This document shows positions 14,893 to 59,148 of a stretch of DNA of 64,000 bases, one piece after another. The notes beneath the pieces are model-generated. The model was given only the letters and a program-made list of their open reading frames with translations. It was not told the origin of the DNA and ran no database searches. This stretch comes from an uncultured cyanobacterium (GTDB lineage Bacteria > Cyanobacteriota > Cyanobacteriia > PCC-9006 > JAAUQQ01). The translations under genes were made by a program, and so were the position numbers. The stretch covers positions 640,001-704,000 of the forward strand of contig OY970368.1 of NCBI GenBank assembly GCA_963718615.1, given 5' to 3'. How positions within the stretch are numbered: position 1 is the stretch's first letter; each line of letters begins with the position of its first letter.

Positions 14893-15024
14893 TTTTCTCT
14901 CTTTTCTTAAGGTAAGATTTCAAACACTCTCAAGTGTTCCCCTGTCTCTCCATGGCGCAACGCAACCTGTACTGATCAGCCAGGGTATCGCTGTTTTATT
15001 CCCTTAGCTCTCAAGTTAAAAACT

Positions 15025-16131
15025 GTGGCACTCAAGAAATCCGAACTCTATAGCTCGCTTTGGGCAAGCTGCGACGAACTCCGGGGCGGCATGGATGCCA
15101 GCCAGTACAAGGATTATGTGCTGGTTCGGAATTTGATTCAGCGGGGCTATCTCAAGGGGATTATTGGGTTGCCTGCGAACTTGTTTTATGGGACAGGGAT
15201 TCCGGCTTGCATTGTGGTGATTGATAAAGCGAATGCTGGGCAGCGGGATGGCATTTTCATGATTGATGCCAGTGCGGGGTTCATGAAGGATGGCAATAAA
15301 AATCGGTTGGGGGATCGGGATATTCACAAGATTGTGGATGTGTTTACGAATCAGTTAGAAATTGCTGGATACTCGCGGATGGTGCCGCTGGAAGAGATTG
15401 AGCGCTATGACGTGTATCAGCATCTGATGGATTACTGGGCTGAGGTGATGCAGGATGATTGCTATTTGATTGCGGCGGAGGGTTGGCAGGCGCAGACGTA
15501 TCGGATGATTGAGGTGAACAAAAAGGGGAAGGAGGTGGATAAGGGTTGGGCCTGTGATTTGGTGCCGAAGGCGCTGATTGTGGCGCGGTATTTTGCGGCG
15601 GAGCAGGGGGAAATTGCGACGCAGCAGGCGGAACTGGAGGGGGCGAACGCTCAGATGGCGGAGCTAGAAGAGGAGCAGGTTGGGGAAGAGGGGGCTTTTG
15701 CGGAGCTGGAGAAGGTGAATGGGGCGGCGGTCAAGGCGCGGTTGAAGGAGGCGAAGGCTTCTATGGGGAGCGATCCAGGGTTGAAGGCGGAGGTGCAGGT
15801 TTTGCAGGAATGGGTGAAGTTGTCTGATCGACAGACGAAGCTGAAGAAGGCGGTGAAGGAGGCGGAGGATGAGCTGGATCGGTTGGCCTATGGGAAGTAT
15901 CCTGAGCTGACGGTGGAGGAGATTCAGCGGTTGGTGGTGGAGGATAAGTGGTTGGCGCGGATTGGGGCGGAGATTGCGGGGGAGATGGAGCGGGTGAGTC
16001 AGGGGCTGGCGGCGCGGGTGAAGGTTTTGGCGGGGCGGTATGGGGTGGCGTTGCCGGAGCTGACGCAGCGGGTGGTGGCGCTGGAGGCCAGGGTGGCGGG
16101 GCATTTGGCGAAGATGGGGTTCGGAATGTGA
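15025..16131 (+). pseudogene. hsdM: Type I R-M methyltransferase HsdM remnant with in-frame internal deletions
   Basis: N-terminus MALKKSELYSSLWASCDELRGGMDASQYKDYVLV joined directly to GIIGLPANLFYGTGIPAC; no DPxCGSG or NPPF/Y motif. Confidence 0.85.
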
Positions 16132-16406
16132 ATCGTTATAAGCTAAACTTATGTGTAAAGTCAGGGTTGTGTCTGCAAAAGTGGATTTAGTGTACATAAG
16201 ACAATCTTATGTATGAATATTGCTAATTCTCGTTCATATGGCGGCGCGATCTGAAGCAGCTGTTTAGGCCAAGGTGGCTGATGCATAAGTTTTCCTGCTG
16301 TCTGCTCAAGGTGTGGGCGCTCACTCTCTCGGTAGCGTTTCGCTTTTAAGGTTTACACTAGGGTTCATTCTTATTAACGAAAAGAGCGGCTTATTGATAA
16401 TATAGA

Positions 16407-17591
16407 TTGGCGAACTATTCAGTATTAACGGAACCGATAATAGTGGTGAAGACTTCTAGATCTGGTCAATACGTGCGGCAGATCGAGGGTTATGGGGCGT
16501 TTATCCCGAATGATCTGCCACCGATTCCTGAGATTGCGATCGATCAGGAGATGTGGAATCTGCTATCACAGGCAGATCGGGCTTTGGGGCGTTTAGATGG
16601 TTCGACGGATGCACTACCCAATCCGGATTTGTTCGTGTTTATGTATGTCCGAAAGGAAGCTGTGCTGTCTAGTCAGATTGAGGGCACACAGGCGTCATTG
16701 ATTGATGTTTTGGAATTTGAATCTCAGGCATTGGAACCAGATAACCCTCAGGATGTTGAGGAGGTTGTTAATTATATTACGGCGATTAATCATGGGTTAG
16801 AACGGCTTCAGACAATGCCTGTCTCTTTACGGTTGATTCGCGAGATTCACCAAGCGTTGATGAAGGGTGTGAGGGGTGCTGAGCGCAGTCCAGGGGAGTT
16901 TCGACGCTCCCAGAATTGGATTGGGCCAGGGGGTTGTACGTTGGCTAGTGCGACATATGTGCCGCCGCCGCCCCATGAGATGCTGCGGGCTTTGGATAAC
17001 TTGGAGCGGTTTTTGCATAGTCCGCAGCCAATGCCGACGCTGATCAAAGTGGGATTGGCCCATGCCCAGTTTGAAACGATTCACCCTTTCTTGGATGGGA
17101 ATGGCAGGACGGGGCGGCTGTTGATTACGTTCTTACTGTGTGAACAAAATATTTTGCAACGACCCCTGCTGTATATCTCATATTATTTCAAACTGTACCG
17201 GGCTAAATATTATGATCGACTACAGGCCGTTCGCGATCGCGGGGACTGGGAAGGATGGTTGAAGTTCTTTCTGCGTGGCGTTTATGAGGTGGCCCAGGAG
17301 GCAGCGCTGACCGCGCGACAAATCGTCAATTTGAAAGAGGAGCATCGTCAATTGGTGCTGAGTCGAATGGGACGGAAAGCGGGGAATTCGATCGCGGTGC
17401 TTGAGAGTCTTTATTTCAAGCCGATTTTTACAGTTGAACATGTTGCGAATATTACGAATCTCTCGTATCCAAATGCGAATGCCTTGATTAAGCAGTTGAT
17501 TGATATTGGTTTGTTTCAGGAGATTACCGGGCAGAAGCGCAATCGGGCATTTTCCTATGCGCCTTATTTAGCGGTTTTTCAGGATAATTAG
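16407..17591 (+). CDS. Fic-family protein
   Basis: Canonical HPFLDGNGRTGR motif and N-terminal SSQIEGT autoinhibitory-type motif; start may be GTG near 16443. Confidence 0.92.
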   Translation: MANYSVLTEPIIVVKTSRSGQYVRQIEGYGAFIPNDLPPIPEIAIDQEMWNLLSQADRALGRLDGSTDALPNPDLFVFMYVRKEAVLSSQIEGTQASLIDVLEFESQALEPDNPQDVEEVVNYITAINHGLERLQTMPVSLRLIREIHQALMKGVRGAERSPGEFRRSQNWIGPGGCTLASATYVPPPPHEMLRALDNLERFLHSPQPMPTLIKVGLAHAQFETIHPFLDGNGRTGRLLITFLLCEQNILQRPLLYISYYFKLYRAKYYDRLQAVRDRGDWEGWLKFFLRGVYEVAQEAALTARQIVNLKEEHRQLVLSRMGRKAGNSIAVLESLYFKPIFTVEHVANITNLSYPNANALIKQLIDIGLFQEITGQKRNRAFSYAPYLAVFQDN

Positions 17592-17604
17592 AGGAGGAGT
17601 TGGT

Positions 17605-17703
17605 ATGAGGAATTTTAATCTGCGGCATTATGCCGATCGATATCGACTATTTTTTGCTACCAGTGCGGCGGCGTTTTCGTGGATTTTGGAGGGTGAGGGG
17701 TGA
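17605..17703 (+). other. 32-aa mini-ORF (MRNFNLRHYADRYRLFFATSAAAFSWILEGEG), probably a gene remnant
   Basis: Strong GAGGAG Shine-Dalgarno upstream; stop overlaps the hsdS start (GTGA). Confidence 0.4.
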
Positions 17704-18547
17704 GTAGTCAGAAGGTGCCGAAGGGGTATAAGCAGACTGAGGTTGGGGTGATTCCTGAGGATTGGGAGGTTACTAAAGTAAGTGGAATCGCATCACCTGT
17801 AAAAAATGCTATCGTTGGTGGCCCATTTGGCTCAGATCTCGTTTCTAGCGACTACGTTGAAGAGGGGATTCCCGTCATTCGTGGGCAAAATATGGGTGAG
17901 CGATATATCTCGGGAAATTTTGTATTTGTAACTCAAGAGAAAGCTAAATCATTAGAATCTAACCTCGCTCAATCAGAGGATTTATTGTTTACACAACGAG
18001 GAACCCTTGGTCAGGTGAGCCTTGTTCCTGCTAATTCATTTCCGCGCTACTTGATATCGCAAAGTCAAATGAAGCTCACGGTCAGCAGAAGGATAGCTGA
18101 TCCGCTCTTTTTTTATTATGTTTTCAGTTCTTCTGCGCAGCAAAAATATGTTCAACTAAATACTATTCAGACAGGAGTTCCACACGTTAATCTCGGGATT
18201 CTTCGAAGCACTCCTGTACAATTGCCTCAGATCGCCGAGCAAGAAGCCATCGCCCAAGCCCTCAGCGACACCGATGCCCTGCTCGAATCCCTAGAGCAAC
18301 TCCTCGCCAAAAAGCGCCAGATTAAGCAAGGGGCGATGCAGGAGCTGCTGACTCCTCAGGCAAGCTGGAAAGATGAAAAATTAAAAGAAGTTGCACCTTT
18401 ACAAAGAGGATTTGATCTCCCTAACAGTCAATTGAAGCAGGGTCTATATCCTGTTGTATATTCTAATGGAATTCAAAATCATCATAGTCAATTTATGGTT
18501 AAGGCACCTGGTGTTGTTACGGGACGTTCTGGAACACTAGGCGTTAT
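17700..18547 (+). pseudogene. hsdS: Type I R-M specificity subunit HsdS truncated in TRD2 by IS1
   Basis: VPKGYKQTEVGVIPEDWEV, TRD1, EQEAIAQALSD...KKRQIKQGAMQELLT, then the start of TRD2 cut at the IS end. Confidence 0.9.
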
Positions 18548-19452
18548 GGTAGTGCTTTTATGTAAAGGATAAAGAAAAACAGAGTGAAGCAGTTGTAGTC
18601 AATAGGAGCTGAAGATAAAGGGAAAGAAGGGAAAACTGTTGTAGAAACGAGGAGCGGTTGTAGGAGAAAGGAAAAGATGACCATAGAACGTACTTGCCCG
18701 ACCTGTGGCTCCCACGACATTTCCAAGAACGGCACAACCCGCCGAGGCAAACAAAACTACAAATGCCGAGACTGCAACCGACAGTTTGTCGAAGACCCCC
18801 AGTGGAAGCCGAAAGACAAAGACACCCAGAGTTTGATAGACCTGCTGCTGCTAGAGAAAATTCCCCTGGCAGGGATTGCTAGAGCAACGGGCGTTTCGAG
18901 TAGCTGGCTGCAAGATTACGTCAATGAACACTATAAGGCGGTGCCCCAAAAGGCAGAGGTACTGCCCAAAGCGAAAGGAAGGCTGAGGGTGCAAATGGAT
19001 GAGCTATGGTCCTTTGTGGACCATAAGGGCAACAAGCAATGGGTCTGGATAGCTTTGGATGCGAACACCCGAGAGGTGATTGGCTGCCACATCGGCGACC
19101 GCTCCCGAGCATCAGCCGTGGCGTTATGGCAATCCTTACCGTCGGTGTATCGGCAATGCGCCACGGTCTATACGGATTTTTGGGAAGCCTACGAGAGTGT
19201 GATTCCAGCGCAGCGTCATCGTGCCGTCAGCAAAGACAGTGGGTTGACGAGCTACATCGAAAGGTTCAACAACACCCTGAGGCAGAGGGTTTCGCGCCTA
19301 GTGAGAAAAACCTTGTCTTTCTCCAAGAAGCTGGACAACCATATCGGTGCAATTTGGAATTTCATTCATGAGTACAACCGTCTAATCAGAGAAAAGATGC
19401 TGAACAACCAGCCCAGTGCTATTTTCTCCATCCTTTACTAAAGGGGACTACC
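18548..19452 (+). mobile_element. IS1-family insertion sequence, about 905 bp, no target-site duplication
   Basis: Imperfect 23-bp terminal inverted repeats GGTAGTGCTTTTATGTAAAGGAT and (reverse complement) GGTAGTCCCCTTTAGTAAAGGAT; the two flanks do not match. Confidence 0.88.
18677..19441 (+). CDS. IS1-family transposase (single-ORF InsAB)
   Basis: CPTC...CRDC zinc ribbon, QMDELWSFV, YTDFWEAY, IERFNNTLRQR. Confidence 0.92.
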   Translation: MTIERTCPTCGSHDISKNGTTRRGKQNYKCRDCNRQFVEDPQWKPKDKDTQSLIDLLLLEKIPLAGIARATGVSSSWLQDYVNEHYKAVPQKAEVLPKAKGRLRVQMDELWSFVDHKGNKQWVWIALDANTREVIGCHIGDRSRASAVALWQSLPSVYRQCATVYTDFWEAYESVIPAQRHRAVSKDSGLTSYIERFNNTLRQRVSRLVRKTLSFSKKLDNHIGAIWNFIHEYNRLIREKMLNNQPSAIFSILY

Positions 19453-20059
19453 CCGTAATGCAGATATCCAAAGATACTTGGGGAATCATCCTCAAGACAT
19501 CGGGCAACGGTTGAGGCAACTCACAGCCTCAGGCTGGTTGAACAAAGATGGTCATGGCAGAGGTACGAGATACCGCCTGTGCAAGGTGAACTCCTCTCCT
19601 GCCAAGGCTTTCTCTCCTGGATCAACTTCTAGCTCCGAGCATTTGCCCTCAAGCTCCGAGCATTTGCCCTCAAGCTCCGAGCATTTGCCCTCAAGCTCCG
19701 AGCATTTGCCCTCAAGCTCCGAGCATTTGCCCTCAAGCTCCGAGCATTTGCCCTCTCATGATGCAGTCATGCTTTCTTCAGAGATAAGTCATCCAGAAGC
19801 TGAGACCGTTGCTCGGCTTCTGGAAATAGCTGCCCCCATTCGTAATACGCGCAAAATCAATAAAACAATCATGGAGAATGCAATATTGGCACTATGCGAG
19901 GATAAGTGGCTAACATTACGCACCCTTACAGAGCTACTGAATCGTCATTCAGACACCTTAAGAACGCACTATATCAATTCCATGCTGAAGGATGGTCGTC
20001 TAGAAGCTCGTGTTCCTGGTAGCCCCAATCACCCGGCGCAGGCTTATCGCAAAAAATAG
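19453..20059 (+). pseudogene. 5'-truncated C-terminal part of a winged-HTH protein (resembles the tail of AlbA_2/RecG-C-type ATP-binding proteins)
   Basis: Frame is open from the IS end; GWLNKDGHGRGTRY and PGSPNHPAQAYR motifs; family assignment from memory. Confidence 0.6.
19631..19755 (+). repeat. Six tandem copies of 21-bp AGCTCCGAGCATTTGCCCTCA (SSEHLPS)
   Basis: Units start at 19631, 19652, 19673, 19694, 19715 and 19736; identical except the final base of the last copy. Confidence 0.97.
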
Positions 20060-20060
20060 G

Positions 20061-20155
20061 AAAATCGCCACCATCCTCTCCGACATGGACAGCGAAATCG
20101 CCAGCCCCGAAACCAAACTCGCCAAGCCCCACTCAAACAAGGCATGATGCACCTC
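20061..20155 (+). pseudogene. Orphan 3' conserved end of an hsdS gene
   Basis: Translates KIATILSDMDSEIASPETKLAKP, then after a frameshift LKQGMMH, matching the HsdS C-terminal helix. Confidence 0.75.
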
Positions 20156-20185
20156 GTTTTGCCGTTAAGTCGCTGTGTCCATTTA

Positions 20186-20212
20186 AATTCGCCAGACAGT
20201 GCCTGGCGAATT
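20186..20212. other. Perfect 10-bp stem hairpin upstream of the hsdR remnant
   Basis: AATTCGCCAG-acagtgc-CTGGCGAATT. Confidence 0.45.
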
Positions 20213-20271
20213 CCCAAAATTCCCCCATAATAAGACTCACGGCCAAAAGCTCCCCCTCCCCCCGCCCCGCC

Positions 20272-21606
20272 ATGAGCAACATCGGACACTCCGAACGCGT
20301 CACCCAAAACCGTGTGATCACCCTCTTCAAAGATCAACTCGGCTACGACTACCTCGGCAACTGGCAAGATCGCCCCAAAACCACAGGCCAGCCCAACAGC
20401 AACATCGAAGCAATCGACCTCACCCGCCACCTCACCGCCCAAGGCTACAGCCCCGCCCAAATCAGCCAAGCCCTCTACCAACTCCGCACCGAAGCCGACA
20501 AACCCACCCGCAGCCTCTACGACAACAACAAAGCCGTATACAGCCTCCTCTACTACGGCATCCAAATCAAAACCAGCGCCAGCGAACCCACCGAAACCCT
20601 CCAACTAATCAACTGGCAAAACCCCGAACAAAACCACTTCGCGATCGCCGAAGAAGTCACCCTCCAAGGCCAAAAAGAAAAACGCCCCGACCTCGTTTTG
20701 TATCTAAACGGCATCGCGATCGCCCTCATCGAACTCAAAAACAGCCGCGAAGACATCGGCAAAGGCATCCGCCAAAGCCTCACCAACCAACAACCCGAAT
20801 TCATCGGCGCATTCTTCAGCACCATCCAACTGATCTTCGCCGGAAACGATTCCGAAGGACTGCGCTACGGCACCATCGGCACCCCCGAAAAATACTTCCT
20901 CACCTGGAAAGAAGACGAAACCGAAAACAGCACCTACAAACTCGACAAATACCTGCTCAAACTCTGCGAACCACACCGCCTCCTCGACCTCATCCAAAAC
21001 TTCATCCTCTTCGACGCTGGCGTCAAAAAACTCTCCCGCTGCCACCAATACTTCGGAGTCAAAGCCGCCCAGAAACATATCCGCAACCACGAAGGCGGCA
21101 TCATCTGGCACACCACCCAAAGCGGCAAACTCCACCGCACCATGAAAGCCCTCATGCCCAAAGCCACCTTCATCGGTTTCACCGGCACCCCCCTACTCAA
21201 AAAAGACGCCCAAACCAGCCTCGAAGTCTTCGGCAAATACATCCACACCTACAAATTCAGCGAAGCCGTCGAAGACAACATCGTCCTCGACCTGATCTAC
21301 GAAGCCCGTGACATCGACCAAACCCTCGGCTCCGAAACCAAAATCGACGCCTGGTTCGACGCCAAAACCCAAGGACTCAACGACTGGCAAAAAGCCACCC
21401 TACGGGAAAAATGGGGCACCCTGCAAACCGTCCTCAGCCTCGACGGTGAGGACAAAGACTTCGGCTACATCGTCGATTACAAAGACCTGTTCAAAAAAGT
21501 CGAAAACGCGATCGCCGTCTACACCGCTCATTATCTTCATGGATCAATTTATGCCTGCTTGGCGGTTTTACCGAGAAACTCTCGATCAACTGCCTATATG
21601 ACATGA
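20272..21606 (+). pseudogene. hsdR: Type I R-M restriction subunit HsdR remnant with in-frame internal deletions and 3' truncation
   Basis: RPDLVLYLNGIAIALIELK nuclease motif; GIIWHT joined to TQSGKLH (Walker A/DEAH region lost); 444 aa versus roughly 1000 for full HsdR. Confidence 0.85.
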
Positions 21607-21751
21607 AACATGGCTACATTAAGGGGCATAATACGGGCACAGAACGCGTAAGAAACAGCCATTTCAGTTCCTAGAGGACTAAAGAATCGGAACGTTTGCG
21701 ATCGCCCCTGGGAACCTTAAAACCATCCATCCTGCTTTACAGGGAACTACC

Positions 21752-22366
21752 ATGGCCACTCTCCCATTTCTCCCGTTTCTTCTCCTTTTCCTCGTCGGTC
21801 TTCTCCTCTCCACCATTTTCGGCATTACGAACATCGTTCTCGCCTTCCAAGAGAGCGCCCTGTGGGGAATTTTGGCCTTGCTGGTTCCCTTTGCCGCCTT
21901 GGTTTTTAGCATCAAATTTTGGAGCCGCAAATGGGTGCGGCGGTCGTTCCTGGGAAATATTGGCGGGGCGGTGCTGATGATTGCCGGTATGATCGGTCTC
22001 AGCGTAGCCATGCCAGGGCTGATGAATCAGTTCGAAGGAGCCATGACGATGCCCATGGAGGATCGTCCCTTTGCAAACGGGGAACCGGGAGAACTCGGGG
22101 ATTTACCCCCAGGAACGCTCCCCGAAGGGGTTCTGCCTGAAAATGGAGATGCCTTTGCCGCCGGGGTCAACTATGCCACCGCTGCAGCAGAGCTCACCCA
22201 AACCGCTAAAACCCCAGAAGAATGGGAAAAAGTTGCAACCCAGTGGGAATATGCGGTGGCGATGATGGCGGCGGTGCCCGCAGACCATCCCAAATCCGCC
22301 TTGGCCCAGACAAAAGTGGGAGAATATAAAAAGAACTTGGCCTACGCTCAGCAGAATTCCCAGTAA
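21752..22366 (+). CDS. Hypothetical membrane protein with a cyanobacterial helical C-terminal domain
   Basis: About three transmembrane segments; AAELTQTAKTPEEWEKVATQW. Confidence 0.7.
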   Translation: MATLPFLPFLLLFLVGLLLSTIFGITNIVLAFQESALWGILALLVPFAALVFSIKFWSRKWVRRSFLGNIGGAVLMIAGMIGLSVAMPGLMNQFEGAMTMPMEDRPFANGEPGELGDLPPGTLPEGVLPENGDAFAAGVNYATAAAELTQTAKTPEEWEKVATQWEYAVAMMAAVPADHPKSALAQTKVGEYKKNLAYAQQNSQ

Positions 22367-22399
22367 AATCCCCAGCCAAAACGCACCATTAATAGATCT

Positions 22400-23401
22400 A
22401 TGGCCCCTGCACCGTTATCGCCCTCTCCCTTAATTGAAGACATCCTTGGCGTTTCTCCTGCCGAGAGCTGGGTGTCGGTTTGCGATCGCACCTCCTGGGG
22501 CCGAATTTTGGTGGGGGATGGCGATCGCATCAAATTTCTCCACAACCAAAGCACCAACGATTTCCAAAACCTCACAGCGGGCCAAGGCTGCGAAACCGTA
22601 TTTGTCACCTCCACCGCCCGAACGCTGGATTTGGCGACAGCCTACGTTTTGGAAAATGAAATTCTGCTCCTCGTCTCACCCCAGCGCACGGAATTATTGC
22701 TGAAGCAATTCGATCGCTACATTTTCTTTGACGACGCAGTGAAGCTCACCAACGTCACCCAGACCCTAGCCTGTTTCACCCTATTTGGCCCTGGCAGCTA
22801 CGCCTTGCTTCAGCAGCTCACCGCCAAGGATTTTTCAAGACAACCGTTGTATCACCATCAACAGATCAACCTAGAAAGTATCGAGATCCGCATTGCCAGC
22901 GGCAGCGACCTAGGTTTACCAGGCTATACTCTTTTCTGCTCGATCGACCAAGCGGCTTCGCTCAAACAGTTGCTAGAAGAACTCAATACTAAGCCCTGCA
23001 CCTTAGACACCTGGGAAGCGCTCCGCATCGTGCAAGGGCGACCCGCCCCCGACCATGAATTAACAGAAGACTACAATCCCCTGGAAGCAGGGCTATGGCA
23101 AACGATTTCCTTTGATAAGGGCTGCTACATCGGTCAGGAAACCATCGCCCGACTCAATACCTACAATGGCGTCAAACAAAGACTTTGGGGTCTAGAGCTA
23201 GATCAATGGGCGTCACCGGGTCCCGTCATCACCCCAGCAGGCGAGAAAGTGGGTCAACTGACCAGCATTGTGCCGACCCCAACCGGAGCTTTTGGCCTCG
23301 CCTATATCCGCACCAAAGCAGGCGGGGCAGGACTCTCCATTCAGGTTGGTGATGCATCTGGTACAGTCGTACCCTTGGGCTACGTTAGTCACCCGTGTTA
23401 G
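22400..23401 (+). CDS. ygfZ: YgfZ-family folate-binding protein
   Basis: Signature KGCYIGQETIAR. Confidence 0.92.
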   Translation: MAPAPLSPSPLIEDILGVSPAESWVSVCDRTSWGRILVGDGDRIKFLHNQSTNDFQNLTAGQGCETVFVTSTARTLDLATAYVLENEILLLVSPQRTELLLKQFDRYIFFDDAVKLTNVTQTLACFTLFGPGSYALLQQLTAKDFSRQPLYHHQQINLESIEIRIASGSDLGLPGYTLFCSIDQAASLKQLLEELNTKPCTLDTWEALRIVQGRPAPDHELTEDYNPLEAGLWQTISFDKGCYIGQETIARLNTYNGVKQRLWGLELDQWASPGPVITPAGEKVGQLTSIVPTPTGAFGLAYIRTKAGGAGLSIQVGDASGTVVPLGYVSHPC

Positions 23402-23457
23402 TCACCCGCCTGAATCGCCCAGTAAAGCGCCCCCATTCAATTGTCAAGTCCTAAGGT

Positions 23458-23739: not shown

Positions 23740-23776
23740 GGGGATTCATCCAACAATTGATTTAACGCAGACCCAC

Positions 23777-33755: not shown

Positions 33756-34358
33756 TTAGAGGGTCTGAAAGGCTTGGTCAAGAATTTGAGTGGCGAGATA
33801 CGCGGCGTGATTGAGGGCGTAGTTCTGATCTCGACAAATCATGATGTAGGCATCTGCTTCGCCGGGTTGCCGAGGTGCGGGGGAGACGACCCACTGAGGA
33901 TTTAACCGCTTGAGCTCAGCGATGTAGGTTTGGAAGTATTCGCGATCGCCCTGGGAGGAATTCGCTGGAAGGACAAAGCGCTGGATCTGAGGCGGAGAGG
34001 GAGCGCCTTGGGCCTTCGTCTCTGCTTGAGGGGGAATGTCTAGGGGGTTAACTTCTGGAGGGTCAATCTGAGGAGGGCGATCGCGAACAAGCGGATCTTC
34101 CAGAATAGTGGTGGCGCGATATAGGCGTTTGTTACGTTGAGCGTCTTGGTTTTGAATCGCTAGCCGTTCGGCTTGGTAGAAGGCTTCAAAGGTTTTGTCT
34201 TGCTCGGAGAGTTCGTCGAGTTCGTGGATGTGGCTTTCGAGGTCTGGGGCGATCGCCATGATTGCTTCTGGCAACTCAATCCCCCTTGCCGAGCAGGCTG
34301 CCAAGGCGGCTCGGAAGGCAGCTAGATCGATGGCTTGTAGATTACGAGGGGGGGTCAT
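33756..34358 (-). CDS. Hypothetical protein
   Basis: 200 aa; ATGA overlap with the stop of the CHAT remnant. Confidence 0.65.
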   Translation of the reverse strand: MTPPRNLQAIDLAAFRAALAACSARGIELPEAIMAIAPDLESHIHELDELSEQDKTFEAFYQAERLAIQNQDAQRNKRLYRATTILEDPLVRDRPPQIDPPEVNPLDIPPQAETKAQGAPSPPQIQRFVLPANSSQGDREYFQTYIAELKRLNPQWVVSPAPRQPGEADAYIMICRDQNYALNHAAYLATQILDQAFQTL

Positions 34359-34897: not shown

Positions 34898-35044
34898 CTA
34901 GGTAAGGATCCAAGGGTGACGGCAACGGCTAACCCGGCCTGGATGCGTTGGGGTGCAGGAAGGAAATGCCAATTTTTGTGATGAAATCGTTGAAAGGTCA
35001 TTGATCTTATAAAAGTTAGTAAAATTTCAAGATGCTATTTCGTA

Positions 35045-50673: not shown

Positions 50674-50824
50674 TGCGTTTCAGGCTTCTGTTGTCTTTTG
50701 CATTGGGTTGCACCTTCTCTGTTGCAAGCGATCGCCCCACCTCGGCAAATTCAAGAAATTTAATCCCTATGACATCCCTACACCTGCTCAAATAGAATTT
50801 GTCTTGATCGCTTGTATTCCCTGT

Positions 50825-52935
50825 ATGTCCAACCTCAGCCAGCTCGAAGCCTCTCTCTGGGAGGCGGCTGATCAGCTCCGCGCCAATTCAAAACTGAATG
50901 CCTCTGAGTACAGCATGCCGGTACTGGGGCTGATTTTCCTGCGTCACGCGACCAATCGCTACGAGGTCGTGCGGGAGGAGATTGAGAAGACGCTACCGAC
51001 GCGGGGCGGCAAGAAGCGAGCCCTGACCGCTGCGGATTTTAAGAGCAAGGCGGCGCTGTTTTTGCCGGAGACGGCGCATTATGACTATCTCCTGAACCTT
51101 CCAGAAGACAAAAATCTCGGTGCAGCGCTGGTCCAGGCGATGAAGGACATTGAGGAGCAGTCCGACCTGCTGAAGGGTGTGCTGCCGAAGGAGTACACCG
51201 GGTTTGATAAGGCGCTGTTGCGTGACCTGGTGCGGATTTTTGGGCGGGATGAGTTGAAGACGGCCCAGGGCGATGTGTTTGGCCGGATTTATGAATATTT
51301 CCTCAATAAGTTTGCGATGAGCGGTGCCCAGGAAGGGGGCGAGTTTTTCACGCCGCCGTCGCTGGTGCGGATGATTGTGAATGTGATTGAGCCGAAGCGG
51401 GGGGTGGTGTTTGACCCGGCCTGCGGCAGTGCGGGGATGTTTGTGCAAACGGGGCATTTTTTGGAGCGGCTCGGTACGAATCCTTCGGAGAAGGTGACGT
51501 TCTTTGGGCAGGAGAAGTCGGAGACGAATACGCGGCTGGCGAAGATGAACCTGGCGGTGCATGGGCTGGATGGGAATATCCAGCTCGGCAATACGTTCTA
51601 CGACTTTCGCAAGGAGCTGGTGGGAGCCTGTGACTATGTGATGGCAAATCCGCCATTCAATGTGGATTTGGTGGATCCCAAGAAAATCAAGAACGACGAC
51701 CGGCTGTTTACCGAGAAGAAGATTCCGGGCATTAGCCCCAAGACAGAGACGGTAAGCAATGCGAACTACCTGTGGATTCAGTATTTCCATGCCTATCTGA
51801 AGCCGGGTGTGGGTCGTTCTGGGTTTGTGATGGCGAGTTCGGCGTCGGATGCGGGCCATGGGGAGAAGACGATCCGCGAGCAGATTATTGAGACGGGAGA
51901 CGTGGATGCGATCATCTCCATCGGCACAAACTTCTTTTACACGCGCTCATTGCCTTGCACGCTCTGGTTCTTTGACCGGGGGAAGCCGGAGGCCCGCAAG
52001 GACAAGATTTTGATGATCGATGCCCGGAATGTGTTTCGGGTGGTGACGCGGAAGATTAATGACTTTAGCGAGGAGCAGCTTCAGAATCTAACGGCGATTA
52101 CTTGGTTGTATCGCGGGGAGACGAAGCGGTTCTTGGGGCTGGTGCGGTCCTATATTGAGCAGGTGTATGGCGAGGCGGAGCCTTTGGTGGAGCGGCTGGC
52201 TGGCTGGGATACAGCGCTGGAGCCGTTGATGGGTCGGTTGAAGCAGCTAGGGGAAACGGTGCAGCCGCTGATGACGGAGAAGGCTGAGGTGACAGCGGAG
52301 TCGGTGGAGGCGTTTAAGGCGCAATGGGTGGAGCTGGAGGCGGCTGTGGTGCAGCTAGGTGAGGACCGAGCAGCGTTGATGGCTGGCATTGGGGCTTTGC
52401 CGATGCCGGAGGAGCTGGAGACGAATGAGGCCCAGCATAGGTGGGCGGAGCAATTTGGGGCGCAGGTGTCGTTGTGGAAGGCGGTGCAGAAGGAGACAAA
52501 TCAGGTTTATAAGCTGGTGGGCCGAGGGGTGGAGTTGGCGGAGAAGCAGTTGGGGGCAAGGGGGCTGAAGGACTGGAATAGCCGGGAGGTGCGGCAGGAG
52601 CGGCAGGGGCTGGAGGCGGCGCGGGATGGTGTGGTGGCTGTGGTGAACAGGTGCTGTATTTCGAGCAGCAGGTGCTGTGGTTGCAGTCACGGTTCCCGGA
52701 GGCGGCGATGGTGGATGTGCCGGGGCTTTGTCGGGTGATTGAGCGGGGTGAGATTGAGGATGGGAGTTTGACGCCGGGGCGGTATGTGGGCGTGGCTGCT
52801 CAGGTGGAGGATGAGGATGAGGAGGCGTTTGAGGAGCGGATGCGGGCGATCCATGGGGAGTTGGCGGGGTTGAATGCGGAGGCGGTGGAGTTGGCTGAGG
52901 CGATTCAGAGCAATTTTGCAGAGCTGGGTTTTTAG
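50825..52935 (+). pseudogene. hsdM: Type I R-M methyltransferase HsdM with a one-base frameshift near 52647
   Basis: GEFFTP, DPACGSAG and NPPF intact; C-terminus VLYFEQQ...SLTPGRYVG...FAELGF lies in another frame; could be a sequencing error. Confidence 0.85.
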
Positions 52936-52938
52936 CTA

Positions 52939-53436
52939 CTAGGCGGGAAGCCCCGCGCTCTCCCGAAGGGGAGCGTCGGGATGAGAGCCAGGGGCACTGA
53001 GGGGGTTCGATGCCCCCGAAGTGCCCAAAACAGGAGAATCTTGCTGCTCAATGTACCGCTTCAGGACGGATACCGTGACCCCTCCACAACTGGCAATGAA
53101 GTACGACTCATTCCAGAGCACTGACTTCCAATAGAACTTGTTCACGCGCTCTGAAAACTCAGACCGCAGTCTGCGGCTAGAGACAGACTTCAAGTTGTTG
53201 ATGAACTTGGGCAGCGCCATCTGAGGGTAGTACTGAAACAAGACGTGGATATGGTCGGCCTCACCGTTGACCTCTATCACCTTGCAGTCCCACTTCTCAC
53301 ACAGGTCGCCAACTACTTCTGTCAGTCGTTGCAGCATCTCAGCAGTGAACACTTTGCGGCGGTATTTTGTGGTCAGCACCAGATGGGCTTTAAGGTCTGA
53401 AACCGACCGCCCACTCGAAACAAAGTCGTCTTTCAT
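52939..53436 (-). CDS. tnpA: IS200/IS605 Y1 (HUH) transposase TnpA
   Basis: HLVLTTKYRR, DHIH (HUH), LWNESYF, YIEQQ. Confidence 0.95.
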   Translation of the reverse strand: MKDDFVSSGRSVSDLKAHLVLTTKYRRKVFTAEMLQRLTEVVGDLCEKWDCKVIEVNGEADHIHVLFQYYPQMALPKFINNLKSVSSRRLRSEFSERVNKFYWKSVLWNESYFIASCGGVTVSVLKRYIEQQDSPVLGTSGASNPLSAPGSHPDAPLRESAGLPA

Positions 53437-53471
53437 TAATCAGTGTGCCTTGAAAGTGTTACACTCATTGT

Positions 53472-54752
53472 ATGCGAATAGCCTACCAATATCGACTGCA
53501 ACCAACCTACGAACAGCGGTGTCAGATGAGCTGCTGGCTTGATATGTTGCGGCACCAGTACAACTGGTTGCTGGCAGATCGCTTTGATTGGTGGGAGATG
53601 AACCGCTGCCCAGTCAACGCTTGCCCGCTGGTGACGAGTATCGCTGAGCTACGGGAGCGGCCCAACTACTACAGTCAGAAGCGGTCATTGGTACCCCTAA
53701 AGGGTGAACGGCCTTGGTACAAAGAGGTTCACTCCCAAGTCCTTCAGGACATGGTGAAGCGGGTTAACTTGGCGTTTGAGCGATTCATCAAGGGCGATAG
53801 CTCGGGCAAGCGTAGTGGCAAGCCCCGGTTCAAGGGGCAGCACCGCTATCGCACGTTCACCTATCCCCAGGCAAGTCACGACTGGCTAGACGGCAACCGT
53901 GTCATGCTGCCTAAGATTGGGGCAGTGAAGTTCATCTGCCACAGGCCATTACCTGAAGGGTTCGCGCTCAAGACGGTGGCAATCTCGCTCAAGGCCGATG
54001 GTTGGTACATCACGTTCTCCCTAGAGGACAAGTCGGTGCCAGAAAATCCCCTGCCTGAGGTTGTCCCGACCGAGGCAAACAGCATCGGGGTTGATGCTGG
54101 GTTGGAGTATTTCGTCGCTTGTTCAGACGGCACCACGAAGACGCCACCCAAGTTCTACCGCCAAGCTGAAGAAAGGCTGGCCAAGCTTCAGGCGAAGCGT
54201 GAACTGAGGCCCAAAGGGTCGAAGGCGCGGCGAAAGCTGAATGCCAAAATTGCCAGGTTGCACCAGCGCATTGCTAGGCAGCGGCGGCAATGGCATTTTG
54301 AAACGGCTGGCGAGTTGGTTGCCAAAGCTGATGTGATTTTTGTGGAGGATCTGCAAGTTGCCAACATGACCCGCCGCTGCAAGCCGAAGCAGAGTGAGGG
54401 CGGCGGTTTCTTGCCCAACGGTCAGGCGGCCAAGTCTGGGTTGAATAAAAGTTTTGCTGATGCTGGGATAGCGGGGTTCCTAACCAACATCCTTCCGTAC
54501 AAAGCTGAGAAAGCTAGGCGGCTGGTCGTGAAAGTTAACCCCGCTGGGACATCCCAGCATTGTGCAATTTGCCTGAACCGAGTACCAAAGGAGTTATCCG
54601 ACCGCTGGCATGATTGCCCCCACTGTGGAGCCTCTATGCCGCGAGACGTGAATTCTGGAGTACTCATCAGAAAAGTGGGCCTGGGGCATCGGCTCACTAT
54701 AAAACGCGAATCTGGGGCAACCCGGAGGAGAAGCCCGCGCCGTACCGCCTAA
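53472..54752 (+). CDS. tnpB: RNA-guided endonuclease TnpB
   Basis: RuvC motifs GVDAG, VEDL and RDVN, and zinc finger CAIC...CPHC all present. Confidence 0.95.
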   Translation: MRIAYQYRLQPTYEQRCQMSCWLDMLRHQYNWLLADRFDWWEMNRCPVNACPLVTSIAELRERPNYYSQKRSLVPLKGERPWYKEVHSQVLQDMVKRVNLAFERFIKGDSSGKRSGKPRFKGQHRYRTFTYPQASHDWLDGNRVMLPKIGAVKFICHRPLPEGFALKTVAISLKADGWYITFSLEDKSVPENPLPEVVPTEANSIGVDAGLEYFVACSDGTTKTPPKFYRQAEERLAKLQAKRELRPKGSKARRKLNAKIARLHQRIARQRRQWHFETAGELVAKADVIFVEDLQVANMTRRCKPKQSEGGGFLPNGQAAKSGLNKSFADAGIAGFLTNILPYKAEKARRLVVKVNPAGTSQHCAICLNRVPKELSDRWHDCPHCGASMPRDVNSGVLIRKVGLGHRLTIKRESGATRRRSPRRTA

Positions 54753-54817
54753 GCGGTCGGCGTCGGGAGTATGTCACTGGAGTCTCTAGAATGGCGGTAG
54801 TGATGAGGAGATGGGGT

Positions 54818-55060
54818 ATGAGAACGTTTGAGGCGCAGGTGACGGTTTCGGCGGATCGGCGGTTGATGATTGAGCTGCCGGAGGGCGTTGAGGCGGGGAG
54901 CTATCAGATCGTGGTGGTGATGAATCGGAGTGATGAGGTGCAGGCGGAACCTCAGGCGAGGCGGGGGCTGGATGGGTTGGCGGGTCGGGTGCGATCGTTT
55001 GCGGCGGTGGATGCGGTGAGCTGGCAGCGGCAGGTGAGGTCTGAGTGGAATGACGCTTGA
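54818..55060 (+). CDS. Putative antitoxin (VapB-position partner)
   Basis: 80 aa, GAGGAG Shine-Dalgarno, C-terminal WQRQVRSEW, overlaps the PIN gene. Confidence 0.7.
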   Translation: MRTFEAQVTVSADRRLMIELPEGVEAGSYQIVVVMNRSDEVQAEPQARRGLDGLAGRVRSFAAVDAVSWQRQVRSEWNDA

Positions 55061-55421
55061 CTATGTTTTGGATACGAACATTTTTATTCTGCTGTTCAAT
55101 GACCAGTTGGCTGAGCCAATCCCGGAGGGGCGTTTAGGCTTTTCTGTGATTACGGAGATTGAGCTGCTGTCGTTTGCGGGGCTGGCTGAGGAAGATGAGC
55201 GGCTGATTCGTCAGGAGTTGCAGGTGTTGGAGCGGGTGCCTTTGGATGAGGCGGTGAGTGAACGGGCGATCGCCCTACGCAGGCGCTCTCGGCTGAGGAC
55301 ACCGGATGCGATCGTGGCGGCGAGTGCTGAGGCAACGGAGGCGATGCTGTTGACGAATGATCAGCAGTTGCTGGCGGTGGAGGGGATTCGGGCGCAGGCG
55401 TTGAGAATGCGGGGGGAGTAA
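55050..55421 (+). CDS. vapC: VapC-family PIN-domain toxin
   Basis: VLDTNIFI, SVITEIE, PDAIVAASA, LLTND. Confidence 0.9.
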   Translation: MTLDYVLDTNIFILLFNDQLAEPIPEGRLGFSVITEIELLSFAGLAEEDERLIRQELQVLERVPLDEAVSERAIALRRRSRLRTPDAIVAASAEATEAMLLTNDQQLLAVEGIRAQALRMRGE

Positions 55422-55490
55422 GCGATGGGATGGGTGCGATCGCTCTATCCGGCGCTGGGAGGTTTAGAGTAATTTTGAGGAGCTGAATTT

Positions 55491-56756
55491 ATGAGTTGGA
55501 AGTCATTGCTTATCGGCAACTTGGTGGAGGAAGGGCATATCGATATCCAGACAGGACCCTTTGGAACTCAGCTCAAAGCTTCTGAATATACCGAAATAGG
55601 AACTCCTGTGATCAATGTTCGTAATATTGGTTACTCCAGTTTACGAGCTGACAAATTAGAATTTGTACCTGAACAAAAGCGAGATCAGCTAGCGCAACAT
55701 GTTCTATTAGAAAACGATATTGTTTTTGGGCGTAAGGGAGCAGTTGATAGACATCTTTTTGTACAAGAAGAACAATCAGGTTGGGTCCAGGGTTCAGATT
55801 GTATTCGGTTGAGATTTCTATCTAATAAGATTAGTCCAAGATTTATTTCTTATCTTTTTTTGCTTGATTCTCATAAAGAGTGGATGCTGACCCAGTGCTC
55901 TAATAAAGCTACGATGGCATCCTTAAATCAAGATGTTATCAAGCGGATACCTGTAAAGATTCCGAATGAAACAACTCAAGAAAAAATCGTTGAATTTTTG
56001 TCAAATTATGACGACCTCATCGACAACAACAACCGCCGCATCGCCCTGCTAGAGGAAGCCGTGCATCGCCTGTACCGCGAGTGGTTTGTGCATTTGCGCT
56101 TTCCGGGGCATGAGCGGGTGGCGGTGGTTGATGGGGTGCCGGAGGGGTGGGAAAAGATAGCTTTAGGAGAGATCGCAGACCGCTATAACGGAATTGTTCA
56201 AACTGGTCCTTTCGGCTCTCAGCTTCATAAAAGTGATTATGTTGAGCAAGGTATTCCAGTGGTCATGCCGAAAAATATTAAAGGAGACAAGATAGCTTTA
56301 GATACGATCGCTTTTATCGATGAAGCAACTGCTACTCGCTTGTCAAGACATATCTTAAATATTGGAGATATCGTATTTCCACGTCGCGGTGACTTGAATA
56401 AAAGGGCTTTAATATCAAAAAATGAAGCAGGATATTTATGTGGAACAGGATGCTTAAAGATAAGCATTCCTCAGCAAAAATTATCTTCGCTTTACCTGTT
56501 TAATTATCTAAGAGGTCAGGAAGCTGTCAATTTTATTAATAACAATGCAGTCGGGGCTACTATGGCTAACTTGAGTGCAGGAATTCTGAAATCTTTGCCA
56601 GTCCTTCTGCCGCACAAAAATGTACAAAAGCACTTTGAGAAAATAACAAGTCCTGTCTTTGAACAGACTAATTTGTTGCATAGCCAAAATGTTTTATTGC
56701 GCGAAGCCCGCGATCGCCTCCTCCCCCGCCTGATGAACGGCAGCATCACCGTCTAA
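55491..56756 (+). CDS. hsdS: Type I R-M specificity subunit HsdS (intact, two TRDs)
   Basis: Central DDLIDNNNRRIALLEE...EWFVHLRFPG...VPEGW; C-terminal REARDRLLPRLMNG. Confidence 0.94.
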   Translation: MSWKSLLIGNLVEEGHIDIQTGPFGTQLKASEYTEIGTPVINVRNIGYSSLRADKLEFVPEQKRDQLAQHVLLENDIVFGRKGAVDRHLFVQEEQSGWVQGSDCIRLRFLSNKISPRFISYLFLLDSHKEWMLTQCSNKATMASLNQDVIKRIPVKIPNETTQEKIVEFLSNYDDLIDNNNRRIALLEEAVHRLYREWFVHLRFPGHERVAVVDGVPEGWEKIALGEIADRYNGIVQTGPFGSQLHKSDYVEQGIPVVMPKNIKGDKIALDTIAFIDEATATRLSRHILNIGDIVFPRRGDLNKRALISKNEAGYLCGTGCLKISIPQQKLSSLYLFNYLRGQEAVNFINNNAVGATMANLSAGILKSLPVLLPHKNVQKHFEKITSPVFEQTNLLHSQNVLLREARDRLLPRLMNGSITV

Positions 56757-59148
56757 AATCACAACCGCCCGGAGTCTTAATCGCTACTCTTGTAGAAAAG
56801 AAAGATCCGTAAGACCCACCGGGCCACCCCATGAGCGCCGAATACTCCGAAGACAAACTCGTCCAAGAAACCTACGCCGACTACTTCGAGCAAAGCCTCG
56901 GCTGGCAAAGCATCTTTGCCTACAACGACGAAACCCTCGGACCCACCGGCACCTTAGGCCGCACCAGCCAAACCGAAACCCTCCTGCTGCGCCCCCTCCG
57001 CGCCGCCCTAGAACGCCTCAACCCCGGCCACCCCGCCACCGCCTACGACCAGGCCATCGAAAGCGTCACAAGCTACAACCCCTCCACCCCCCTGCTCAAA
57101 ATCAACCAGAGCAAACACCAGCTCCTGCGCGACGGCATCCCCGTCAAATACGACGACCCCACCAGCGGCGACCCCCTCGAACCCCGCCTCAAAGTCATCG
57201 ACTTCGACCAGCCCGACCAAAACGAATTTCTCATCGTCCGCGAACTCTGGATTCAAGGCCCCTACAAACGCTGCCGCCCCGATATCCTCGGCTTCGTCAA
57301 CGGCATTCCCCTCCTGTTCATCGAACTCAAACGCACCGACAAAAAACTCCAAACCGCCTACGACCAAAACCTGACCAACTACAAGCAATACATCCCCGAA
57401 CTCTTCCACCACAACGCCTTTTGCATCCTCAGCAACGGCGACAGAGCCCGTGTCGGCACCTTCGCCAGCCCCTACGCCTTCTTCAACGAGTGGAAACGCC
57501 TCGACGAAGACGAAGTGGGCCGCGTAGACTTCGAGACGATGCTCATGGGCATCTGTGACAAACGCAACTTCCTGGACCTGGTGGAAAACTTCATCCTGTT
57601 TGACGACAGCAGCGGCGAACTCGTCAAAATCCTGGCCCGCAATCATCAGTTCCTCGGCGTCAACCGCGTTATTCAGCGCATCCAAGAGCGGCGGACACTC
57701 CGGGACAGTGAGGATCCAAAGGTTCAGGAAGCGATCAAACGCCTCGGCGTCTTTTGGCACACCCAGGGCAGCGGCAAGTCCTACTCCATGGTCTTCCTAA
57801 CCGAAAAAGTCCACCGCAAAATCGGCGGCTACTCCTTCCTCATCGTCACCGATCGCCAAGAACTCGACCGCCAAATCGCCGAAACCTACGTCGGCACCGG
57901 AGCGGTCCAGGCCACCGCTGGCAAACAACTCCCCAACCAAGCCACCAGCGGCGAAAGCCTCAAAACCCTGCTCCAGGGCAACCAACGCTACGTCTTCAGC
58001 TTGATTCACAAATTCAACCAAGACATTGCCGACAATGACCCCGTGGGCTATAGCGACAGAGACAACATCATCGTCATCTCCGACGAGGCCCACCGCACCC
58101 AGTACGGCAAGCTCGCCGTCAACATGCGCAAGGCCCTCCCCAACGCCGCCTTTATCGGCTTCACCGGCACGCCCCTGATGGAATCCGAAGAAGACCAGAA
58201 GACCCGCGAAGTCTTTGGCGACTACGTTTCGGTGTATGACTTCCAGCGGGCGATCGAAGACGAGGCCACCGTGCCGCTCTACTACGACAACCGAGGCGAG
58301 AAGCTGGAGATCACCACCGATGAGGTCAACGAGCGGGTGGCTGAAAAGCTAGAGGAACATGACCTCAGCGAAGCAGACGAGGCGCGACTGATGCGGCGGC
58401 TGGGGGGTGACTACGCTGTGATTACGGCTCAAGAGCGGCTAGAGCATATCGCGCAGGACTTGGTGAAGCACTTTTGCGATCGCTGGCAAACCGGCAAAGC
58501 CATGCTCGTCTGCATCGACAAAATCACCACGGTCAAGATGCACGCTCTGATCGATCAGTACTGGAAGCAAGAAATCAAAGCCCAAGAAAAGTTAGTTCGC
58601 AAGGCAACCGATGAGCAGGACAAACAGGACCAGCAGCGCAAGCTCGATTGGCTGAAAGAAACCGAATACCACGTCGTGATCAGCAAAGCCGCCGATGAGG
58701 TCAAGGTGTTTCGGGATCATGAGCTGGATATTGTGCCCCACCGGCAAGTGATGGAGCAGCGAGATTTGGAAACCGAGTTTCGCAAAGATGATCATCCCTT
58801 TCGGCTGGCGATCGTCTGTGCCATGTGGCTCACCGGGTTTGATGTGCCCAGCCTCGCCACGCTCTACATGGACAAGGCCATGCGCGGCCACACGCTGATG
58901 CAGACGATCGCCCGCGCCAACCGCGTTTCTGAAGGCAAGAACAACGGCCTGCTCGTGGACTACAGCGGTATCCTCAAAAGCTTCCGCGCTGCCCTGGCCA
59001 AGTATGGCAAGGCAGCGGTGGAACAGACACAAGGTAATCGCCTCACCGCCCAAGAAGCTGGAGGAACGTATTCAGTGGGCGACAAGAATGCTCCCTACAA
59101 CGCCATGGAAAAGCTGCGGGACGACTACGCCGCAGCCGTGCAAGCCTG

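Follow-up and report, generated by a model that had tools for sequence, protein, structure and literature searches.

Converging flips of GC skew beside hypervariable segments of a cyanobacterial genome suggest a strand-polarised bias linked to recombination or repair

Two type I restriction-modification loci lie in a stretch of 64,000 nucleotides from the genome of an uncultured cyanobacterium (GTDB lineage Cyanobacteriota; Cyanobacteriia; PCC-9006; JAAUQQ01; assembly GCA_963718615.1, contig OY970368.1, positions 640,001 to 704,000; hereafter the window), and they raise the question of how genes on one strand of one operon can come to have opposite base compositions. In both loci hsdM, hsdS and hsdR are found together on the + strand (as annotated with Pfam), and in both, as a first-pass annotation of the window had pointed out, hsdM is rich in G and hsdR is rich in C. 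At four-fold degenerate sites the GC skew of hsdM and hsdR is +0.76 and -0.84 in locus 1 and +0.50 and -0.54 in locus 2, and the four hand counts given in that annotation are exact (35 G and 8 C in hsdM1, 8 G and 22 C in hsdR1, 31 G and 8 C in hsdM2, 12 G and 32 C in hsdR2). We find that the contrast between hsdM and hsdR is one case of a genome-wide footprint that acts at the level of the DNA: in the conserved 1-3 kb beside a hypervariable segment, C is lost and G is kept on the strand that runs 5' to 3' into the segment.

Within the two loci the bias is mostly synonymous, as had been claimed. It persists at four-fold sites and is in fact strongest there, and it is small at codon positions 1 and 2, where the keto skew of the restriction genes in the window is merely +0.07 and -0.15. 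The codon shifts that had been described hold as well: GAG and GAA occur 28 and 9 times in hsdM1 vs 1 and 26 times in hsdR1, and AAG and AAA occur 23 and 4 times vs 0 and 33 times. Moreover, the skew weakens away from hsdS. At third codon positions (GC3) it climbs to +1.0 toward hsdS in hsdM1 and from about +0.3 up to +1.0 in hsdM2; immediately beyond hsdS it sets in at -0.8 to -0.9, staying at -0.7 to -1.0 all along hsdR1, whereas in hsdR2 it is -0.6 to -0.9 and fades past approximately 450 codons. Measured over 1 kb, the GC skew reaches +0.44 and +0.46 at 15001-16500 and -0.39 and -0.36 at 20001-21500 in locus 1, and +0.45 at 52001-53000 and -0.33 and -0.30 at 56501-58000 in locus 2. Such values are rare in the source genome, a single contig of 6.10 Mb in which the standard deviation of the 1-kb skew is 0.107 and of 24,380 windows only 29 lie above +0.45 and 11 below -0.45.

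To describe the pattern across the genome we counted as an arm any stretch of 800 bp or more in which the 500-bp windows have an absolute GC skew above 0.30. There are 204 such local arms, 102 of them G-rich and 102 C-rich, and their order on the + strand is far from even: among neighbouring arms within 3 kb, 32 run G-then-C vs 5 that run C-then-G (18 vs 1 when the threshold is raised to 0.35). Three of the five C-then-G exceptions are junctions between adjacent pairs, and the sole isolated diverging switches within 3 kb at the 0.30 threshold are at 3702501-3705150 and 5197101-5200350. A one-sided sign test of 32 vs 5, done by hand arithmetic, gives about 4e-6, a value in which paralogous pairs inflate the independence of the counts. 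The polarity that had been reported for the window is therefore correct: the strand whose 3' end points toward the variable DNA is the G-rich one. When pairs are collected within 8 kb there are 38, with arms of 0.8-2.9 kb and centres mostly of 0.1-5 kb; the arms have a mean GC content of 0.547 and the centres of 0.473, vs 0.523 in the genome, and the HIP1 palindrome, in which the genome is rich, occurs 0.92, 1.13 and 1.44 times per kb in arms, centres and genome, respectively. Restriction-specificity domains occupy 5 of the 38 centres, tandem arrays 18 and an insertion sequence (IS) alone 1, with 14 containing none of these.

Because the arms in these counts were picked by the skew itself, we also relied on comparisons that involve no skew-based choice, namely those of tandem arrays, the decay profile, specificity loci, neighbours in opposite orientation, CHAT domains and spacers. 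Tandem arrays with a period of at least 27 bp and a length of at least 300 bp (n=38) were scored for the difference between left and right skew and compared with 5,000 random sites. The difference is above 0.3 at 22 of the 38 arrays, above 0.5 at 14 and below -0.3 at none, vs 2.6% of random sites above +0.3 and 1.6% below -0.3. In the mean profile of 36 arrays the left-hand skew is initially +0.22 to +0.26 and the right-hand skew -0.13 to -0.22; they fall to about +/-0.1 at 2 kb and are about +/-0.02 by 3.5-4 kb, the decay being symmetric. All seven specificity-domain loci (five hsdS-type and two MmeI-type) have a G-rich left side and a neutral centre, and five of the seven have a clearly C-rich right side. 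(The two MmeI-like restriction-modification loci lie in tandem at contig 3576500-3593000 and share approximately 77-82% identical DNA in parts; in each, the methylase part is G-rich, the first half of the recognition domain is neutral and the remainder is C-rich, the second half of the recognition-domain open reading frame being counted in the arm.)

Of the three CRISPR regions, two have both arms and the third has the left arm only. In the two-armed regions the flanking genes have skews of +0.52 and +0.88 vs -0.66 and -0.55 in one, and of +0.78, +0.57 and +0.63 vs -0.51 and -0.49 in the other. These regions lie at contig 5211000-5232000, where the region is interrupted by an IS element and its C-rich side extends for more than 7 kb through the cas genes, and at 2187000-2195400; Cas1 genes adjoin two of the three regions, the two-armed one at 5.21-5.22 Mb and the one-armed array at 2.306 Mb. 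We had entertained CRISPR arrays as a negative control, and sub-arrays scored singly are neutral, but whole regions flip in two of three cases and that use was abandoned. IS elements were likewise rejected as the driver: only 4 of 56 copies, from families with at least five copies, have a left-minus-right skew above 0.3, and most sit in neutral context. Thus the sign switches coincide with variable loci, as the first-pass annotation had anticipated, and these comprise specificity domains, coding tandem arrays and CRISPR arrays. Its restriction of the phenomenon to defence genes has to be given up; the same polarity surrounds repeat-protein arrays.

The sign of the skew does not follow the gene. 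It flips within single genes, as in CHAT-TPR genes, a gene for a TPR protein and an Eco57I-like gene 1,391 codons long; along such a gene a plateau gives way in one step to a neutral middle, which ends in a second step. In a locus on the - strand at 5.017 Mb with the order R-S-M, hsdM lies 3' of hsdS and its coding strand is C-rich; that hsdM is C-rich when it is downstream of hsdS indicates that position, and not gene identity, decides the sign. Similarly, among the 49 CHAT domains of this genome, GC3 skews run from -0.57 to -0.82 in the six that have an array 5' of them and are +0.30 and +0.58 in the two where an array lies 3' only, and the mean is +0.04 in the 41 without a nearby array. (Across 30 genomes the mean for CHAT domains is -0.13, with six below -0.3 and none above +0.3.) The sign taken by hsdM according to its position, the sign taken by CHAT domains according to the side of the array and the lack of skew in 80 distant hsdR homologues together led us to reject a property of gene families as the source.

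Neither transcription nor translation accounts for the footprint. Left neighbours that lie wholly outside the central gene have a + strand skew of +0.30 when co-oriented with it (n=50) and of +0.26 when opposite (n=38), and right neighbours have -0.26 (n=60) and -0.16 (n=35), respectively. Spacers, classed by the four-fold skew of their neighbours, have skews of +0.28 (36 spacers) and -0.20 (43) in the two skewed classes and of 0.00 in the neutral class (699). Transcription-associated asymmetry is thus rejected, as hsdM and hsdR are opposite on one strand, opposite-orientation neighbours keep the + strand sign and spacers are skewed; translational selection on codon usage is rejected because spacers share the skew and the sign flips inside single genes. 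The effect reaches proteins nonetheless: at codon positions 1 and 2 in the arms (again arms picked by skew) the keto skew is +0.069 and -0.109 vs -0.010, and protein composition is shifted.

We next consider which bases change. In genes picked on GC skew alone, four-fold sites on the G-rich strand have G 0.548, C 0.136, A 0.149 and T 0.167, vs a baseline of G 0.320, C 0.336, A 0.153 and T 0.192; the C-rich class is the mirror image (A 0.142, T 0.175), and GC skew and TA skew at four-fold sites correlate across genes at only -0.08. Only G and C shift, therefore, and the T-versus-A half of the strand bias that had been noted for the window arises secondarily from the genetic code. At two-fold sites T/(T+C) is 0.73 and 0.42 in the two classes vs 0.62 at baseline, and G/(G+A) is 0.72 and 0.31 vs 0.49; these shifts arise because C is avoided and G is preferred where only transitions are synonymous. 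By hand calculation, the values at four-fold and at two-fold sites can both be matched, give or take a few points, with a single bias that weights G approximately 1.9-fold and C approximately 0.45-fold relative to A and T. The spectrum fits a process in which C is lost to all bases and G is kept, or an equivalent fixation bias; the same equilibrium would follow from cytosines approximately 2.2-fold hypermutable to all bases on one strand (and about half as mutable on the other) or from a conversion bias, between which composition cannot separate.

Several more specific sources of the spectrum were tried and set aside. A single-strand deamination signature, C>T together with A>G, was the spectrum put forward in the first-pass annotation, and it does not fit, as A and T are unchanged at four-fold sites and the TA skew of spacers is just +/-0.06. 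A motif-specific deaminase (APOBEC-like or DddA-like) was rejected because the ratios of arms to genome for the odds ratios of the 16 dinucleotides all lie within 0.91-1.10, and a guide motif of the Chi or KOPS kind because maximal-order Markov analysis of 225 kb of arms returned only HIP1-related words and a weak excess of G runs (z at most 6.6). GC-biased gene conversion in its usual form is not what is found either: four-fold GC is 0.654 in genes with an absolute skew above 0.5 vs 0.639 in those below 0.15. (A raised four-fold GC seen when genes were picked on keto skew was an effect of that choice and vanished when they were picked on GC skew.)

Is the segment between the arms actually exchanged? 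One contig of 2,479 bases from a metagenome (record 1 of run X1) agrees with the central region of hsdS2 and has 547 window bases (56152-56700, the second recognition domain) swapped for 508 other letters; beyond the swap it matches 56700-57684 with 41 differences in 985 bases, so that the hsdR arm is approximately 96% identical. The C-rich hsdR2 arm is also present in metagenome runs X3 and X4 at 95-97.5% identity. (The differences between window and metagenome contigs are unpolarised and were not used as a mutation spectrum, and none of the sequencing runs scanned contained more than 0.12 of the sampled words, with no RNA run listed among them.) Direct evidence for cassette exchange is present but thin, and comes from one locus.

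Comparison with other genomes shows that orthologues in other contexts are not equally skewed. With this, none of the three outcomes that the annotation had named as refuting its view is found: the skew persists at four-fold sites, its switches coincide with variable loci and orthologues elsewhere differ. At contig 402500-412000 a chaperone-usher type cluster (a PapD-like chaperone, an usher and small open reading frames) forms the centre and the right arm, and the ordinary genes for an aldose epimerase and TauE form the left arm. The skew of TauE is +0.68 in this genome vs -0.36 to +0.36 in 11 orthologues, and that of the aldose epimerase is -0.59 vs -0.50 to +0.07 in 7 orthologues. For hsdR, 80 metagenome homologues of 48-56% identity, nearly all of them without HIP1, have a mean of -0.07, with two below -0.4 and none below -0.6. 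The type I loci of 10 other cyanobacterial genomes have both arms in four cases (G021, with a weak hsdR arm, G028, G013 and G038) and a G-rich hsdM only in three (G033, G015 and a remnant in G003). The last of these, from a relative of the same family, is a relic arm: it comprises the last approximately 170 codons of hsdM (contig C203, 7131-8327; 87% identical, with two TGA stops) together with a PIN pair, hsdS and hsdR are absent downstream, and its + strand skew is about -0.46 to -0.47 over 1 kb and down to -0.53 over 500 bp. Among 40 relatives there was no genome of the same genus with which substitutions could be polarised.

Any explanation has to account for what is observed: a polar pattern that depends on neither transcription nor gene family, decays over 2-3.5 kb and goes with variable segments. 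We hold it somewhat more probable than the contrary that the cause is a strand-polarised bias, linked to recombination or repair, at borders between conserved and hypervariable DNA; the causal role of recombination and the identity of the asymmetric intermediate are both inferred. Tracts of homologous recombination or repair would end or begin at such non-homologous borders, and the strand whose 3' end points inward would therefore always be the one that is single-stranded or invading. Either the cytosines of that strand might be hypermutable to the three other bases while those of the partner strand are spared, or correction of heteroduplex mismatches might fix G on it; repeated over evolutionary time, either could saturate synonymous and intergenic sites, with the skew a by-product and not a functional element. 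The polarity could arise from recurrent breaks in the centre with 5' to 3' resection, from RecA strand exchange (5' to 3' on the incoming strand) that is blocked at heterology such that one donor strand prevails near the border, or from inward repair or restart synthesis. Breaks, resection and transformation at the cassettes, which the first-pass annotation had invoked, may be involved. (The genome encodes the competence genes ComEC and DprA and one uracil-DNA glycosylase family gene; a search of it for RecC found none.) What favours this class of explanation is that heterology at the level of the population, and not an obvious barrier to replication, is common to specificity domains, repeat arrays and CRISPR arrays. 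The patterns it leads one to expect are found, with switches at variable segments where exchange would recur, symmetric decay over the scale of recombination tracts and independence of gene orientation, and exchange itself is seen directly at one locus only. In its broader form, that some cyanobacteria have a recombination-coupled, strand-polarised bias acting on the orientation of G:C pairs, be it a "skew-biased" gene conversion or a cytosine-targeted single-strand mutagenesis that saturates synonymous and intergenic sites, we give the idea slightly less than an even chance.

A number of results weigh against this explanation. A strong flip is absent at 16 of the 38 tandem arrays, 14 of the 38 strong pairs have centres that fit no variable class scored, and three of the 10 other cyanobacterial type I loci (G014, G008 and G011) have no skew, although the gene order in G014 is the same. 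Some pairs belong to paralogous CHAT and TPR families, so the counts overstate the number of independent events, and the gene set (4,869 open reading frames of at least 100 codons, taken longest first) comes from a crude caller. The equilibrium composition does not separate mutation bias from fixation bias or selection, and four-fold GC is not raised, so the usual hallmark of GC-biased conversion is missing. Moreover, no break, resection or recombination event was directly observed, population evidence for a swapped centre comes from one locus, and IS copies inside arms are neutral, which suggests that the process is slow or not currently active.

The explanation given in the first-pass annotation, that spontaneous C>T and A>G deamination on 3' tails resected at recurrent cassette breaks suffices, we consider improbable. 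It agrees with the polarity and with the decay over distance, with the replacement of C by T (0.73 vs 0.62) and of A by G (0.72 vs 0.49) at two-fold sites on the G-rich strand, and with the small T-over-A skew of spacers (+0.06 and -0.06). However, the two-fold shifts already follow under the genetic code from avoidance of C and preference for G, and four-fold sites show neither a gain of T (0.167 vs 0.192) nor a loss of A (0.149 vs 0.153); furthermore, the GC and TA skews of genes are uncorrelated, and purines make up approximately 0.70 of four-fold sites, which requires transversions. Alternatively, forks arriving from either side might stall at repeat arrays or other awkward centres, with nascent strands degraded and resynthesised inward, such that the arms are over-replicated and acquire a skew of the leading-strand type. 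The G-then-C switch does resemble that at a terminus, and in a genome without a fixed replichore skew or gene-strand bias forks could come from both sides and give symmetric arms. Indeed, skew of constant sign over each replichore is not found here: 100-kb skews lie mostly within +/-0.02, the cumulative GC-skew curve of the genome has no V shape and a gene-strand bias is absent too. That same lack leaves no ordinary replication skew to amplify, hsdS and other specificity domains are not obvious fork barriers and yet all seven of their loci are patterned, and GC3 skews of up to 1.0 are far above typical replication skews. We therefore regard fork stalling as unlikely. (The extremes of the 100-kb skew are -0.054 at 3.8 Mb, then +0.053 at 2.1 Mb; approximately 23 kb of positive skew at contig 2106751-2129500 lack a C-rich partner.)

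The G-rich arms might instead have been selected as polar signals or structures for cassette exchange, whether guides of the Chi or KOPS kind, G-quadruplexes or R-loop-prone DNA, as at the pilE G4 or in immunoglobulin switch regions. Known polar guide motifs are G-rich and point the same way, and selection could produce a per-site preference of approximately 1.9-fold for G and 0.45-fold for C. There is nevertheless only a small chance, in our estimate, that this is the explanation, given that no oligomer is over-represented beyond HIP1, that the odds ratio of GG is 1.02 in arms vs 1.09 in the genome, that the bias is even over thousands of synonymous and spacer sites and decays smoothly, and that relic arms persist beside lost centres (34361-34729 in the window and the G003 remnant). 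Lastly, the skew might have been inherited with horizontally acquired modules, be intrinsic to gene families or be an artefact of assembly or base calling. Restriction systems are mobile, some arm pairs are paralogous and the hsdM fragment of G003, 87% identical in protein, has the same skew, but signs flip within genes, the sign of CHAT domains is set by the side of the array, genes of vertical descent have the skew in this context alone and the 80 homologues elsewhere are unskewed. In addition, independent metagenome assemblies contain the C-rich hsdR arm at 95-97.5% identity, and the density of HIP1 in arms and centres (0.92 and 1.13 vs 1.44 per kb in the genome) argues for long residence. 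This last alternative is largely refuted, and we attach hardly any probability to it.

Several known systems resemble the footprint in part. Like replication GC skew, it is strongest at synonymous sites, sets G over C on one strand and switches sign at a fixed point as at a terminus; unlike it, the arms here are 1-3 kb long, number dozens per genome, are centred on variable segments and reach GC3 skews of 1.0. The asymmetry between the heavy and light strands of animal mitochondrial DNA likewise produces a near-saturating synonymous skew with a positional gradient, which is ascribed to the time spent single-stranded; G and T are both enriched there, whereas here A and T are flat at four-fold sites and the pattern is local and two-sided. 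In kataegis at resected breaks and in the skew at mammalian meiotic hotspots, polarity flips at the centre, as the 3' tail to its left and that to its right are formed by opposite strands. These eukaryotic patterns are somatic clusters or weak evolutionary signals, whereas the footprint described here is a saturated evolutionary signature in a bacterium, lies at hypervariable segments and has no deaminase motif. GC-biased gene conversion is also a recombination-linked fixation bias at synonymous and non-coding sites, and a one-parameter model of the fixation type fits our data; it favours G and C alike and raises GC, however, whereas the bias here concerns which way round a G:C pair lies and leaves four-fold GC flat. 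The Chi and KOPS/SRS oligomers are G-rich, orientation-dependent and point to a target site, but each is a specific over-represented word and we found none. In the shuffling of type I recognition domains, those of hsdS are swapped between conserved flanks, as here in one metagenome contig; the footprint, by contrast, is also found around repeat proteins and CRISPR arrays, and in the literature searched we found no published compositional footprint in the flanks of such shuffling. Nor did the full-text literature searched contain a description of local skew flips beside hypervariable DNA; subscription journals and supplements were outside its scope, and a prior account may exist. Bidirectional strand asymmetries are reported to originate at human CpG islands (PMC2817419); they too are local, two-sided and centred on a genomic feature, but they are eukaryotic, have a low amplitude and are tied to transcription and to origins of replication.

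If recombination or repair writes the footprint, then one genome sequence would show where hypervariable DNA is exchanged, with no need of a pangenome. Sign switches of the GC skew would provide a map, from sequence only, of the borders between conserved and hypervariable DNA (specificity domains, repeat-protein arrays and CRISPR arrays), and the polarity, together with a decay over 2-3.5 kb, would show which way natural strand-exchange or resection tracts run and how long they are. It would also imply a strand-asymmetric step in bacterial recombination or in single-strand damage that overrides codon usage and shifts protein composition. The footprint explains large local skews in the absence of replication skew in some cyanobacterial genomes, and where codon usage or skew is used to call foreign DNA, origins of replication or the orientation of genes, such loci will mislead. 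Our preferred explanation makes testable predictions for transformable, polyploid model cyanobacteria.

The features of the window are collected in Table 1.

Table 1. Skewed segments and associated genes in the window (coordinates as window positions; skew is four-fold GC skew where so marked)
Feature	Position	Strand	Skew	Remarks
hsdM remnant	15025..16131	+	four-fold +0.76	left G-rich arm, locus 1
Fic/DOC gene	16407..17591	+	four-fold +0.53	within left arm, locus 1; Pfam
hsdS, one recognition domain (Methylase_S)	17700..18572	+	four-fold -0.08	neutral centre, locus 1
IS1-family transposase	18677..19441	+	-0.03	recent insertion in locus 1 centre; Pfam
Fragment with Fic-like C-terminal domain	19478..20059	+	four-fold -0.36	start of C-rich side
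hsdR N-terminal fragment (HSDR_N and part of SWI2_SNF2)	20272..21606	+	four-fold -0.84	right C-rich arm, locus 1
Two genes 3' of hsdR1 (second with GCV_T fold)	21752..23401	+	four-fold -0.23, -0.44	fading C-rich tail
G-rich segment	33000..35000		1-kb, +0.19 to +0.37	
Truncated CHAT-domain gene	34361-34729	-		CHAT profile positions 203-289, E = 3e-16
hsdM, intact	50708..52738	+	four-fold +0.50	left G-rich arm, locus 2; Pfam
IS200/IS605 insertion (tnpA on - strand, tnpB on + strand)	52939..54752		four-fold +0.05, +0.07	inside left arm, between hsdM2 and PIN gene
PIN-domain gene	55050..55421	+	four-fold +0.83	innermost left arm, locus 2; Pfam
hsdS, two recognition domains	55491..56756	+	-0.03	neutral centre, locus 2; Pfam
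hsdR	56831..59170	+	four-fold -0.54	first ~450 codons are right C-rich arm, locus 2
IS3-family insertion (rve, HTH_21)	59217..60361	+		splits hsdR2; Pfam
hsdR C-terminal piece (T1RH-like_C)	60497..61423	+	-0.12	past the arm

Locus 1 is a wreck, and its skew is the strongest in the window despite this decay. Its hsdM consists of the first approximately 33 residues of HsdM_N fused, through an internal deletion, to the last third of N6_Mtase, with a C-terminal extension; hsdR1 ends after 444 codons, and hsdS is flanked by the Fic gene on one side and by a separate Fic-like C-terminal fragment on the other. The IS1 element has 99.8% identical copies at other sites in the genome. In locus 2 the IS200/IS605 and IS3-family insertions have a composition that is neutral or their own and therefore arrived after the skew had been written. 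(Pfam annotation covered 70 open reading frames.)

The same polarity had also been reported at the edges of islands in the window, and this stands in part: the skew at 34001-35500 is evident at 1 kb (+0.37 and +0.32), whereas the other edges are short and give -0.06 to -0.15 and +0.12. The interval 34480-34960, with 217 G vs 75 C, had been listed among these edges; the patch is the truncated CHAT-domain gene and not an edge effect of the glycosyltransferase island. The gene resembles what would be left of a repeat-protein gene if its 3' arm alone survived, as a relic. This fragment adjoins a six-gene island (35045-43037) that encodes two APH-like kinases, an ABC exporter and three glycosyltransferases.

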